In this document: in pieces, positions 47,001 to 53,000 of the stretch
How positions within the stretch are numbered: position 1 is the stretch's first letter
Layout of the letters: the number at the start of each line of letters is the position of its first letter
Virus record (IMG/VR): IMGVR_UViG_2879731240_000008
DNA: 54,820 bases
Source: a virus
Lineage: Duplodnaviria > Heunggongvirae > Uroviricota > Caudoviricetes
Direction: 5' to 3' (one strand)
Position numbers: made by a program

Positions 47001-50000
47001 TAACGATGAACAGGTATATGTTGGCGATTCCGCATTAAACCTGAAAGGCCTTGTTACCCTGGACGGCGTGCCTGTCAACAACGCTGCCAAAACGTGGGCA
47101 ACCTCAACACCGGACGAAATCCGCGCAAGCATTAACCAGGTGCTGTCTGATGCGTGGGCCGCTTCTGGTTACTCTGTGGTTCCGCGTGATTTGCTGATCC
47201 CGCCTGAGCAGTTTGCTCTGTTGTCCAGCATCATCGTTTCATCTGCAGGTAACCAGTCCCTGTTGACGAACCTTCAGACCAACACCATCAGCTATCACCA
47301 GAACGGTGTTCCGCTGAATATCCGCGCGGTTAAATGGCTGAAAGGCCGTGGTGTGGGGAATAAGGATCGCATAGTTGCGTACACCAACGATAAAAAATAC
47401 GTCCGCTACCCGCTGGTTCCGCTTCAGAGCGTGCCGGTGCAGTATCGCGGTCTGTATCAGATCGTCACTTACTACGGCAAGCTGGGTGCAGTCGAGCCAG
47501 TGTACAAAGAAACCATTTCGTACGTTGATGGCATTTAACAGCCACATGGCCCCCTGGCGGGGCCATTAAGGATGACCCGATGGCAAAAAATGATGCAGTA
47601 ATACACGTACATACCCCGTTTGTGCTCACGCTTCCCGACGGTTCTCGGCGCGAGTTTGTTAAAGGCCGTCATGTTGTGGAGGAAGACGTTGCCACGCACT
47701 GGTTCACTCGTGCGCACGCGGAAGTATCCGTTGGCAAAGCCACAGACGCGCGTAACGAGGTAAAAAATGCCAAAGAATTGAGGTGTACTGGCAATAGCGG
47801 ACACTACCATTTGTTCTTTTTTTAAGCAGCCATCTGATGATATTTTTCCCTGAAGGCTGCCGGGGAGATATTCCCCAGACGAGAGTGACGACGCTGACGA
47901 TTGTAGAAAATCTCAATGTATTCCCGTATTACTGAGATGGCTTCATCCCGGTTATTAAAACGATAGTGGCTCAGGCTCTCATTTTTCAGCGTTCCCCAGA
48001 AGCTTTCCATCGGAGCGTTGTCGTAACAGTTACCTTTACGCGACATTGATGTTTTCAGACCAGACTGCTCCTGTATGACCCGGTAATCGTATGCGCAGTA
48101 CTGTGAACCTCGATCAGAGTGGTGGATTAGCCCGGCAGGTGGGCGCTGGCTCCTGAGCGCCATAAACAGGGCTTTACCTGTCAGCTCTTTTGTCATGCGC
48201 TCTCCCATGGCGTAGCCGACAATTTCGCACGTATAAACATCTTTGATGCCAGCGAGGTACAACCATCCCTCCTGTGTGGCAACATACGTCAGGTCCGCCA
48301 CCCAGACCTGATTTGGTGCTGTAGGAGCGAACGTCTGGTTCAGCAGATTTGGCGCAACTGGCAGATTGTGGTTCGGGTTCGTAGTCGCTCTGAACTTGCG
48401 TTTCTGCTTACAGCGTAGCCTCAGCTCCTTACGAAGACATGCCAGTCGGTCACGACCAACGATGATGCCATTCTCTGCCAGCTCCGTCTGGAGCCGCCGG
48501 GTTCCATATGTTTCGCGAGTGCGGATATGTGCCACCTTAATCTCCAGTTTTAGCCGCTCATCACTTTGTTTTCTGTCTGAGGGTTCATGCTGTACCCAGT
48601 TGTAATAACCGCTCCTGGATACACCAAATACCTGACACATCGCTTCAATGGGAAATTGTTGTCGCCATTGTTCGATTAACGCGTATTTTTCAGCGACTCC
48701 TGTGCAAAATACGCTGTTGCTTTTTTTAATATATCGCGCTCAAGGCGAGCTTCATTTAACGCCTTACGCAGTTGCAGAATTTCAGATTCCAGTTCAGCCA
48801 CCGTGCGGGAACCAGGAGTACCGAGCCCTTTTCTGGCGGCGGTAACCCATTGTCCTAAAGTGCCTTCAGGAAGGGATAATCGGGAAGCGCCTTCACTGAT
48901 CGAAAGTTGATTTTCAAGAACCGTTCTGACAGCTTCGGCTTTGAACTCTTTAGAGTAACGTTGGGTTTTTCTGCTCATTATTAGCTCCTTCTGATGCCAT
49001 TCTATTTCAGGAAGGAGTGTCCGTTAAACTCAGGCTATCTCAATAAACCGTGCTGTGTAACTGCTGTGGATCAAATCTGACCACAACTTTTTTCACTCCG
49101 GCATTCATTAATGCCATGTTGTAATAAACGTTTTTCGCGCCTTTAAGGGAGCCGCCAACTTTAAGCGTAAACTCGCCTTTGCGTGAAACGTTCACCGCCT
49201 CGGCAGGCAGTAACAGCATCCGTTTTTGTTCTTCGGTTGGCTTACGCACAATCGTTCTGGCGTATTCACGCTCGAAAACATCATCAAACGAGAGTTTGCC
49301 CCCGCACATTTCTGTTTCACGGCCTGTTCTGGCATTGAACATCGCCACACCTTCGGCAAAGGTTTTCAGAAACAGCTCTGCATCAACAGCGTGGTCGCCA
49401 TAGTTATCAGGTTTTGCCTGCGGATTTGGCCCCGTATATGCGCCAGCCAGTGCCGGATGCTTATCAACGTATTCCTCAAGCCCACCAACACCGAAAGCAC
49501 GTTCAACAGGTTTTGCCTGGCCCCAGCCTTTACCGGCAACAACGCTTGTCCAGTGCATTTTCGCACCCATCAGTAAAAACAGTCCTTTTGGATCGTCCTC
49601 TTTTACCTTAAAGCGGTAGCGATTGGGCGCGCCTCCCGTCAGCCATTTATTCGCAGCACCACGGGTGTTATCAATGGTGATGTGAAAATCCTCCGGGATA
49701 CTGTAGCGAGTCACAACATCCATGAACGAGAGGCGAATTGAATCAATGTTCTCGCTCACATCGCAGCGCCAGCCCAGAATTTTTCGGGTTTTCACATCCT
49801 GCCAGAACCATGTTTTCGGACGGATCACATCACCGTTAAACCAGCGTACAAAGACGTTATGCAGATAACCGTCGCCGTTGATCCACTGCATGGCGTCCAG
49901 GTGTTCCACAGTTCGCTGCTGTGCCGGTATCAGATGCATCAGTGCATGTTCACCTTCACGACAGGCAACAACCATTGCCTCGTCCAGTTGCTGAATCCGG

Positions 50001-53000
50001 CGAAAGGCCGTGGCACGGGAGGGAATACTCCAGCCATGCTCGCGGGCTGCCAGTTCCAGACGCTCATAACATTTGCGGAAGGCGGGTTTTTCCGGTCGCA
50101 GATAATCTGCAATCAGAAACTGCCAGGCATCCTCGTCAAATTCACTTTTGTGAACATTGCGACGGGATGCTCCACGTCCATCAACAAGTGCAGCCGCCCA
50201 GTCAGGCTTCGCAAACTTCTGTACCTGGTAATACTTGTCCCGCAAAGTGGATGCGCTGACCTGGTAATGCCCTGCAACGGTCGCAAAAGCCGTTTTCGTT
50301 GAAATCCCCTGGTTCAGCATTTCGTCTGTGGCCTGAATTGAGGGCAACCATTTTTCAGCCAGGCTGCGCTGGGAATCGCTGGCTTTATCCCATTTGCTCC
50401 ATAGTGCCTCACGATCATAATCATGAGCTTCCAGCGTGGGGCGGGCGATTTCAAAACATCCCTGACTGGTTTTAAATTTTCCTTGTTGGAGCAAAACTTC
50501 AGCTCGAGCAATGTTAGGAAGAGAAGATATATGGTATTCGTAAGCAACCCCTCTAATTCCTTCTCTTCTTCTCTTGAGCCATCCTTCTCTCTGAGCTCTT
50601 TTGTGAACCCCCATTAATGAACCAGGTAAACCAGATAAACCCATGCATTCAATTGCTGATATCCACTCTCTCATTGTGATCCCTTAGATATCTACTAGGC
50701 CAAATTTCCTCAGGTTTCATGTTTAAGGCGTCAGCAATAATGCGTTCACCTTTAGGCCATGGCCTGACTAATGCATTTGCAAGCGTCCCGGTTGAATAAC
50801 CTGAACGTCTGGACAATTTTGCCAGAGGGGTTCCTGTTTTTTTGAGGGCCGCAATCACGTCGGCCCGATGCCAATCGTTACTCATCTTTCGCACACCAAC
50901 CATATTGCGTATGATAAAGGGTTACCAAAACAAATAATTCGTCTTGATTATCTGTTTTATACATTACCAAATAAACCAAACCGGTTTATATCAGTTAATG
51001 TGGTTTATTTTGTAATCCATTGATTTTTATATAGATAAATCTGGTAAACTTAGTTTATGAAAAGCGCAAATGAGATAAACCAGTGGATGACACCCAAACA
51101 AATTACTGAACTGGATGGAATGCCTGGGACAATACAGGGGGTGCATAAACGAGCAAAGAAAGAAGGATGGCCGAAGCGTTCACAAGAAGGGCGTCGCGGG
51201 CCTGGGGTTGAATATATCCCGGCAATACCGGCTATGCAAAAAATTGCTATCGAAGAAATGAATGCTGATACATTGAAAATGTTCTCCCTGTTAATCAATA
51301 AACTAGGAGAAAATGAAGTCCGAGAGATAGAGCTAAACATGGCTAAATATGGGCTTTCCGGATTAATGCAAGAACGCCCCTCCATCTCCGTTGACACCCT
51401 ATTGGCAACGCTGGGTATTGATCGCCAAACACTACAAACAGCTTTGGCGCTGCATAAATTACCTCCAGAAACTCGCCAAGAGATTTTGTCAATGTATGGT
51501 GTTCATAAACAGGAAGAGCCTGTAGCTCCTTTGTTGGAACCACAAGATGCGAAAAAAGCCGTATAACAACCATGAGCCAGCTAAAACATACTTCACCTCA
51601 CATAATCACACATGTAACATACCTAAACGGCATGAGCTGATTTGTGATATGAGTCATTTGATGACAGCCTGGTTGTTATCGGTTTTGAACGTTTTTTGAA
51701 GCTATGATTGAAATGATTTATAGTGTTTTTGTTTTTCGTTTTTTCAATGAAACAAAAGCAATTTTTTACTATCTTTCGCGTTTCATTGGTTAACGCCTAA
51801 AATTTGTACTACAGGCTTGCAAGCCCCACCAAATCTAATCCCATCAGATCCCGAATAATCCAATGTTCTCCCGGTTTTTTCGTACTTCAAGTGAATCAAT
51901 ACACTGGGGCAAACGCTAACCCGTTTCCGCCAGCGTAAACATATGCTGGAAAGTATTGATAGCGCCAGCCAGAAGCAAATTGATGAGATGTTTAATGCCT
52001 ATGCTCGCGGTGAACCCAAAGACGAACTGCCGACCGGCATTGACCCCTTGACGCTAAACGCGGTGCGAAAACTGTTTAAAGAGCCTGGTGTGCAACATAC
52101 GGCAGAAACGGTGGCGCAGGCACTGACCATCAGCCGCACCACTGCCAGGCGTTATCTTGAATATTGCGCCAGCCGCCATCTGATTATTGCTGAAATTGTT
52201 CACGGCAAAGTTGGCAGACCACAACGCATATACCACAGTGGGTGACATGATAAAGCCGGAGGAAACTTGCCTCCGGCATTACTATTTACTTGCCTGTGAC
52301 CGCTGCTGCCGTTCCTGGCACCATCAGCTCTGTAGCAACGATAACAATCACTAGCCCAACAAGCACCGGCACCGAGGTGCGTTTTACGACTTCAAATGGT
52401 GAGATTTTCGCCATCCCGGCAACCGCAACGACTACGCCAGAAACGGGTGATAGGGTACGACCCAGGTTTGACGCCTGCAGCATCGGGATAGTCAAATACG
52501 CCGGGTTAATGCCGGAAGAGTGCGCCAGTTTCGGGATCATCTCAACAAACGCATAAAACGGCGCATTGCCTGAACCGGTCGTGACTGCCGCCAGCATGGT
52601 CAGAATCACCAATACCAGCATCAGGATGATACTCGCCGAACCAAACGAGGTAGCGATAGAAATCAGACTTTGAATAAAGCCGATGGTGCTAAGCCCCTGA
52701 GCGAATACCCCAGCGGCAACCAGCAGCATCACCACGTTAGCAAACGCATCTGCCATCCCGCGATAAGCCACTTCCAGACCAGAGAAAACTTTCTGGGTAT
52801 TAAAGCTGCGGAGGAACTCCAGAATGGAGGCAATCAGCATACAAATCACCAGAATAGTGATGATGTGTAATTGCGGACCCCATTTACCGTCAAAAATCAG
52901 TACACCGATGATCGGCGTGAACGGCAAAATGGCATAAAACGCGGGGGCAGTGGTGGTGATTTCACTGACATCTAACATTTCATGAGAGATGTGCTCTTTT

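Follow-up and report, generated by a model that had tools for sequence, protein, structure and literature searches.

The Mu repressor and domain I-alpha of the Mu transposase, MuA, bind the same operator/enhancer DNA. Phages Mu and D108 are homologous over Mu nucleotides (nt) 1-359 and again from nt 1519, and both D108 and SfMu show the same mosaic pattern against Mu, with a replaced block that ends at about codon 56-64 of the transposase gene A, and with N-termini of the repressor c and of A that are alike within each phage. The 1986 paper by Mizuuchi, Weisberg and Mizuuchi reports, in its title as cited in PMC3820752, similarity between the repressor and transposase N-termini of D108 and Mu. 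The Mu-like phage SfMu, which has D108 immunity, grows on Shigella flexneri, and common Mu-like 'remnants' have been inferred from Southern bands (PMC4406740). Here we analyze a Mu-like element located in the host gene dpiA, within a stretch of 54,820 nt recorded as a virus of the Caudoviricetes (IMGVR_UViG_2879731240_000008), which we refer to at its full length as the window. Positions 49043-51903 (minus strand; 2861 bp) are the left end of a Muvirus prophage, namely, the end itself (attL), c, operators, ner and a truncated transposase gene, A' (codons 1-544). The element is an ordinary prophage remnant truncated by the insertion sequence (IS) IS600, and its rare repressor/operator type is its sole unusual feature. 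The explanation that best accounts for the whole, and in which we have high confidence, is that of a Mu-like prophage stump with an exchanged immunity module, truncated by way of an IS-mediated rearrangement in which IS600 took part.

Read from 51903 to 49043 on the minus strand, the element is colinear with the left end of Mu. A sequence-only reading of the window had recognized a Mu left end here, followed inward by c, ner and A, and this holds in both respects: the reverse complement of 51903..51458 (446 nt) is 91.5% identical to Mu nt 1-447, and 98% over the first 100 nt, while the open reading frames (ORFs) and their Pfam domains agree with the gene order. Alignment with Mu and with the Shigella phage SfMu, the check that this reading had proposed, likewise confirmed Mu-like identity outside a replaced block. 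The attL (51567..51903, minus strand; 93-98% identical to Mu nt 1-300) opens with the terminal 5'-TGTATTGATTCAC..., and the Mu terminus TGTATTGATTCACTTGAAGTACG, with its terminal 5'-TG, is present at the outer end of the element. Comparison with the Mu sites places the cores of the MuA end-binding sites L1, L2 and L3 at 51877-51898, 51769-51788 and 51731-51751 (minus strand), respectively; the run of A beside L1 is one A shorter than in Mu, and L3 has one mismatch. Overall, this attL is nearer to that of Mu than to those of D108 or of the prophage of Escherichia coli UMNF18 described below.

Homology with E. coli K-12 (98.8%) begins directly at 51904, which corresponds to K-12 position 654,201 and to nucleotide 340 of dpiA. 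Every base of the junction is assigned, with none left over, and dpiA is broken exactly at the Mu end, just as had been read from the sequence. What remains of the gene is its 3' part (51904..52245, plus strand; Pfam HTH_64, E 3e-49; 98.8% to K-12), codons 114-226, which encode the helix-turn-helix (HTH) domain only and which gene callers report as a 100-aa ORF at 51943-52245. By comparison with K-12, the window lacks dpiA codons 1-113, along with dpiB and the cit operon. Loss of the receiver domain leaves dpiA inactive in this lineage. The 5-bp Mu target duplication, if it survives, would read CTGGG at the missing right end. As for the rest of a complete Muvirus, A stops at codon 544, and B, the late genes and the right end are not within the window; a blastn search of the whole Mu genome against the window returned, beyond the two segments of the element, only a 98-nt similarity to a tail-fibre-assembly gene at 2894-2991. 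Rfam and tRNA scans gave no match inside 49043-51903.

The middle of the element, about 960 nt, has no megablast-level similarity to Mu, D108 or SfMu. In element coordinates, homology with Mu covers nt 1-446 and resumes from nt 1410, and the divergence between these limits is continuous: it begins near c codon 133, takes in the c-ner intergenic region as well as ner, and ends at about codon 60 of A. Its right boundary is a shared one, since homology resumes at Mu nt 1511 in the remnant and at nt 1519 in D108, that is, at A codons ~61-64 in every pairing tested. Across its whole length the block shares 86-95% identity with a prophage in E. coli UMNF18 (NZ_AGTD01000001, 3.087 Mb), which lies in a zinc-binding dehydrogenase pseudogene beside yphB and carries c, ner, an A of 662 aa, B, gam, mor and lysis genes. 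Since the divergence extends from c into A by way of the operators and ner, and since the same block is found in full-length prophages, it is the whole immunity module that has been exchanged (most of c, the operators, ner and A codons 1-~60), with domain I-alpha travelling along, and not an isolated domain.

The products encoded by the block bear this out. The c repressor (51057..51566, plus strand; 169 aa; Pfam HTH_Tnp_Mu_1, E 4.5e-12) is intact, and its N-terminal winged-helix DNA-binding domain matches that of the Mu repressor (PDB 1G4D, E 2e-10). It is heterologous over codons 1-~133 and Mu-like at the DNA level over its C-terminal ~36 codons; its amino-acid identity is 85% to the c of UMNF18, 35-39% to that of Mu and 28-32% to that of D108, and its length of 169 aa recurs in relatives from intact prophages. 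The early-transcription regulator gene ner (50649..50885, minus strand; 78 aa; Pfam HTH_35, E 4e-29), which overlaps the start of A by 26 nt, encodes a protein 99% identical to the Ner of UMNF18, 59% to that of Mu and 54% to that of D108.

The truncated transposase A' (49040..50674, minus strand; 544 aa) contains the domains HTH_Tnp_Mu_1, HTH_Tnp_Mu_2, DDE_2 and Mu-transpos_C, the last of which is cut at profile position 50 of 61. Codons 1-60 (50495..50674, minus strand; PDB 1TNS, E 7e-12) encode domain I-alpha, the enhancer/operator-binding winged helix, of the rare immunity type, and codons 61-544 (49043..50494, minus strand; 97.8% DNA identity to Mu A) encode I-beta, I-gamma, the DDE core and part of II-beta. 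Residues 545-663 are missing, and with them domain III and the last part of II-beta; the catalytic residues D269, D336 and E392 are conserved. Structural matches divide in a similar way, with residues 76-544 matching the MuA chain of the transpososome (PDB 4FCY) almost perfectly, and residues 2-75 matching the MuA enhancer-binding domain 1TNS weakly (E 7e-12) and about equally to the Mu repressor domain 1G4D. In bins of 20 residues, identities to MuA are 9, 8 and 9/20 over residues 1-60, then 14, 19 and 16, and 18-20/20 in each of the full bins that follow; against the A proteins of Mu, D108 and SfMu together, residues 1-60 are ~43-45% identical, residues 61-80 70-80% (14-16/20), and most later bins 95-100%. 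Against the A of UMNF18, residues 1-60 are 91% identical. The sequence-only reading had described near-identity to MuA from about residue 75 behind a swapped N-terminal DNA-binding domain. The divergent N-terminus followed by near-identity stands, with the boundary drawn slightly late, given that the last 1452 nt of the element equal Mu nt 1511-2962 at 97.8% and that DNA identity resumes at about A codon 61; the isolated swap does not stand, since c, the operators and ner are replaced too.

That c and I-alpha form a matched pair is visible in their sequences. The N-termini of c and A of the remnant are 40% identical over 60 aa, including the stretch GVHKRA(K/Q)(K/R)EGW, given as GMPGTIQGVHKRAKKEGWPKR in this alignment; the corresponding c/A motifs are GVHYRANVQGW / GVIYVAKKQGW in Mu and NITRKAVAEDW / NITRKAQREGW in D108. 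In such a coherent module, the N-termini of repressor and transposase would both recognize one set of operator/enhancer sites. The immunity block would have arrived whole by recombination among Mu-like phages, in the way that Mu differs from D108.

How rare is this immunity type? The 963-nt block was matched in only one of 5426 complete E. coli genomes (UMNF18, 89.5%) and in none of 50,697 phage records, even when sensitive blastn was included; the best phage repressors found by tblastn are of the Mu type and ~36% identical to the c of the remnant. Relatives of c at 85% identity or more form a few small clusters in a collection of 5.8 billion proteins, from S. flexneri, Salmonella enterica and E. 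coli, and three more contigs in IMG/VR, of 19-36 kb, encode a c at 85-88% identity. The Salmonella loci resemble complete Mu-like prophages at unrelated chromosomal sites, which is what transpositional integration is expected to give. Judged by its sequence, the block represents a third, uncommon immunity type in the Mu/D108/SfMu group, conventional in kind.

Between c and ner lies the control region (50886..51056), with putative operators in the form of a clustered heptamer and an inverted repeat. The heptamer GGTTTAT/ATAAACC, which is not present in the operator regions of Mu or D108, occurs four times within ~110 bp, as against 0.04 copies expected from its density in the window, and the inverted repeat has 16-nt arms at 50963-50978 and 51001-51016. 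Together they make a plausible operator set for this specificity, and the region would, by analogy with Mu, double as a putative transposition enhancer. It is conserved in the UMNF18 and Salmonella prophages apart from a 9-bp deletion in the remnant at 50957/50958 (minus strand ...TTTGGT | AATGTA...), where three intact prophages of the same type read TTATGTGAC or TTATATGAC, and this deletion takes out one GGTTTAT heptamer. A promoter and terminator consensus scan of 50600-51950 gave four sites, with 3.4 expected from shuffles, and no promoters were assigned. The dpiA fragment that has lost its receiver domain lies in the same orientation as c and the Mu left end (51057-52245, plus strand), with no terminator-like site detected between them on that strand.

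At its inner end, A' is cut by a complete IS600 of the IS3 family (47779..49042, minus strand; 1264 bp), which matches positions 1-1264 of annotated IS600 at 99.6% and has TG...CA ends and intact orfA and orfB (ORFs of 100 and 272 aa). As the sequence-only reading had noted, the IS supplies the stop codon: its last bases, TCA at 49040-49042, are TGA on the minus strand (49042-49040), and A' stops after Tyr544, where Mu A continues Cys-Tyr-Thr-Leu. The flanks of this copy are AAT and ATA, that is, it lacks the 3-bp target duplication of IS3-type insertions, which would fit recombination or deletion after insertion and leaves its identity as IS600 unaffected. On its left flank, and on the opposite strand, is a small 3'-truncated gene, cut 23 nt before its stop, which comes after the major capsid gene in the head module of an unrelated phage. 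Because IS600 thus joins fragments of two different phages, IS-mediated recombination or deletion is indicated instead of simple insertion. A second complete IS600 is found at 24865-26128, in the same orientation and with five differences from the copy that cuts A; its flanks, GTT and CCC, show no target duplication either, and it has probably also been involved in rearrangement.

The arrangement is not peculiar to one assembly. An assembly collection indexes the exact 544-aa A' in 945 of its blocks, and in all eight chromosomes retrieved the same 4.6 kb, spanning both IS600 junctions and the dpiA junction, is present at 99.7-100% identity, in the gene order dacA ... pagP-dcuC-dpiA'-c-ner-A'-IS600-capsid module. 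We take all eight to be S. flexneri, and two of them, CP001383 and LM651928, to be strains 2002017 and NCTC1. NCBI names a near-identical c protein 'DNA-binding protein [Shigella flexneri]', and an exact-pattern scan found the junction sequence in two genomes, that of S. flexneri SFBU1023 and one of 4.44 Mb with the label E. coli; none of the 5426 complete E. coli genomes covers the junction region. Among the papers listed by our literature searches on dpiA and Shigella, none mentions dpiA, and the dpiA::Mu remnant is not described in the papers searched. The junction between the Mu left end in dpiA and IS600, which all chromosomes retrieved with the exact A' share, can serve as a marker of the S. 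flexneri lineage.

The host sequences at the two ends of the window place the truncation in a larger event. Positions 1-582 are the reverse of K-12 807,328-807,909 (ybhB, ending in the ybhC-ybhB interval), and positions 51904-54820 are K-12 654,201-657,117 in forward orientation (dpiA'-dcuC-pagP). We take the ybhC-ybhB interval to be the location of att-lambda. Since the two host ends are inverted relative to K-12, where ~153 kb of indispensable genes normally lie between them, a ~153-kb inversion or translocation is implied, with breakpoints in prophage and IS DNA of which one falls within the Mu-like prophage, and the truncation is part of a large IS-mediated rearrangement and not a simple IS insertion. 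IS-mediated inversions are known from S. flexneri, one of them mediated by IS600 (PMC1550401). In the scenario that we propose, a phage of the genus Muvirus would have integrated into dpiA of a S. flexneri ancestor, dividing this response-regulator gene behind codon 113; a copy of IS600 located in codon 545 of A would then have taken part in a deletion, in an inversion of ~150 kb against a prophage at att-lambda, or in both; and the IS-mediated rearrangement would have removed from the locus everything to the right of A codon 544. The order of these events is inferred. The remnant thus shows where one breakpoint of a rearrangement of ~150 kb with respect to K-12 lies, and explains the loss of dpiA in the lineage.

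Several other explanations deserve to be weighed against this one. That the prophage is complete and the IS600 junction a mis-join, or a contig break at a repeat, was a natural concern, and the sequence-only reading had named an assembly break as what would undo the truncation. IS600 is indeed multicopy, with two copies in the window and matches in 3487 of 5426 E. coli genomes, and draft assemblies do break near this position of A; however, a 4.6-kb stretch that is 99.7-100% identical in eight independently assembled complete chromosomes, with the exact A' in 945 blocks, refutes a break, and we regard an artefact as practically excluded. Hardly more credible is a chimeric transposase unique to this lineage, in which I-alpha alone was swapped, possibly with a new enhancer specificity uncoupled from the repressor. 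The abrupt passage in A' from ~43-45% identity to Mu, D108 and SfMu A over residues 1-60 to 95-100% over the remainder invites this idea, but the divergence is unbroken from c via the operators and ner into A, the recognition stretch of A has its match in the N-terminus of c, and a 91%-identical A N-terminus stands beside the same c and ner in the full-length UMNF18 prophage, with the same type in Salmonella prophages. It also seems improbable, though less so than either of these, that the stump is a retained anti-phage cassette, in which c blocks homoimmune phages and A'(1-544) poisons the transpososome of any incoming Muvirus. The poisoning is conceived because A' has end-binding domains that barely differ from those of Mu, D108 and SfMu but no domain III, and if true it would give protection beyond repressor specificity. 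Nothing in the present data requires that the stump was kept by selection.

The alternative that we take most seriously, although we consider it unlikely, is that the prophage was split and not truncated, its remainder (from the 3' end of A to the right end) lying intact elsewhere in S. flexneri as the reciprocal product of an inversion between two IS600 copies. The inverted host ends, which ~153 kb of essential genes separate in K-12, and the lack of a target duplication at either IS600 copy of the window are what such an inversion would leave, and the SfMu study detected hybridising Mu-like fragments in many S. flexneri strains (PMC4406740). On the other hand, the flank past IS600 belongs to the head module of a third phage, so that a single event would not suffice; the searches brought up no large cluster of C-terminal fragments of A or of N-terminal fragments of DpiA; and the predicted reciprocal junction, dpiA5'-CTGGG-Mu right end, had no exact match in a collection that holds two genomes with the junction of the window. 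With moderate confidence, we lean towards loss of the rest of the prophage as opposed to its survival elsewhere. Certain points nevertheless weigh against the truncation scenario as a whole. The scan for the reciprocal junction was an exact match over 27 nt, which one single-nucleotide polymorphism could defeat. Protein searches for the displaced 5' half of dpiA (DpiA N-terminus, 114 aa) and for the 3' remainder of A (MuA 545-663) each returned few candidates, none attributable to S. flexneri, and these negatives are weak. One junction cannot give the order of events, which may have been IS600 insertion first and recombination later, or a direct adjacent deletion, and regulation might be impaired by the absence of the 9 bp that intact relatives have in their operator region.

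The candidates for the missing parts that came out of these searches were rejected one after another. The only plausible short match for the displaced dpiA half, a protein of 117 aa (P0014), proved to come from an E. coli cit-dpiBA locus that is intact but for this frameshift allele, with no Mu junction. For the 3' remainder of A, a group of contigs (P0064) starts 3-5 nt from the truncation point, but with bare contig ends, which are likely to be assemblies breaking where a two-copy repeat ends. Another candidate (P0070/L025, Logan SRR11783474) comes from a different sample, and its Mu-like A appears to be interrupted 15 nt upstream of the IS600 site. The terminal sequence at its positions 1-60 is presumably the outside end of IS10, and the closeness of the interruption to the IS600 site is probably a coincidence. 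Neither of these two candidates for the A remainder has a bearing on a reciprocal product.

Whatever the fate of the remainder, the stump cannot transpose or replicate, because it has only one end, no B gene and an A' without domain III. In MuA, tetramer assembly and cleavage depend on domain III-alpha, and contacts with MuB and ClpX on III-beta. The intact c and its operators would probably still form a self-repressing switch that keeps ner and A' silent. Some residual immunity may persist, and then only against phages of the same rare type; it would not extend to phages of the Mu or D108/SfMu types, whose repressors are ~28-39% identical to this one. The growth of SfMu on S. flexneri is compatible with a stump that is harmless to heteroimmune phages. 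It is also conceivable that transcription of c toward attL reads out into the co-oriented, receiver-less DpiA HTH fragment. The practical value of these findings is small and no new mechanism is involved; rather, the remnant provides a third immunity type for the Mu/D108 group, present in none of the deposited phage genomes and in few E. coli and Salmonella prophages, together with a clean natural example of the transposase I-alpha domain travelling with repressor and operators.

Between its two host ends, the window is a mosaic of 51 kb comprising ipaH, lambdoid late genes, the first IS600, replication genes, IS elements, a group II intron, a SEN34-like head module, the second IS600 and the Mu stump. 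Adjoining ybhB, at the edge of a lambdoid prophage, is a gene for a type III secretion system (T3SS) E3 ubiquitin ligase of the IpaH family (1060-2823, plus strand; NCBIfam IpaH_Shig, 563 bits, cut-off 550). The lambdoid prophage contains a lom-like gene (5052-5651), a J-like gene (5719-9198), an ORF of tape-measure size (11573-14644) and four tRNA genes (Gly-tcc, Thr-tgt, Arg-tct and Met-cat; 28267-28577, minus strand). A lone tRNA-Met (35578-35653, minus strand) lies in the mosaic of IS elements and group II intron. There, among IS3-family fragments, positions 33708-35005 (plus strand) hold an ORF of 379 aa for a group II intron reverse transcriptase/maturase, N-terminally short against the model, and after it an Rfam Intron_gpII match (34919-35005). 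The head module next to the IS600 that cuts A (39321-47778, plus strand) is like those of SEN34 and vB_EcoM-689R2, with terminase, portal, Mu-F-like, DUF2213, cement and major capsid genes (Pfam families Major_capside, Pa193_gp24, Phage_Mu_F, Phage_portal_3 and Terminase_3), and its terminase is interrupted at ~40704-42036 by an IS annotated as IS2 in the matching record.

Compared with the described systems, then, the remnant is like Mu in terminal sequence, sites L1-L3, gene order, orientation and A codons 61-544 (97.8% DNA identity), and its last ~36 c codons together with the attL region are 83-98% identical to those of Mu. It differs from Mu in the heterologous N-terminal ~133 codons of c, the operators, ner and A codons 1-60, in a c of 169 and not 196 aa, in the 26-nt overlap of ner with A, and in its size, 2861 bp against 36.7 kb. 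With D108 and SfMu it shares the mosaic pattern, but its block is neither of the Mu type nor of the D108/SfMu type (c 28-32% and Ner 54% to D108). The prophages of UMNF18 and Salmonella enterica (L018-L020) have the same immunity type, with c of 169 aa at 85-87%, conserved heptamers and, in UMNF18, Ner at 99% and the A N-terminus at 91%. Yet those are full-length prophages with an A of 659-662 aa and with B, kil, gam and mor as well as lysis and head genes; they occupy other chromosomal sites and keep the 9-bp operator segment deleted in the remnant, and the attL of the UMNF18 prophage is D108-like, whereas that of the dpiA remnant is Mu-like. In its present form, the remnant is of the same kind as the IS-truncated cryptic prophages of Shigella, with a complete IS600 that lacks a target duplication, joins two unrelated phages and is fixed in the lineage.

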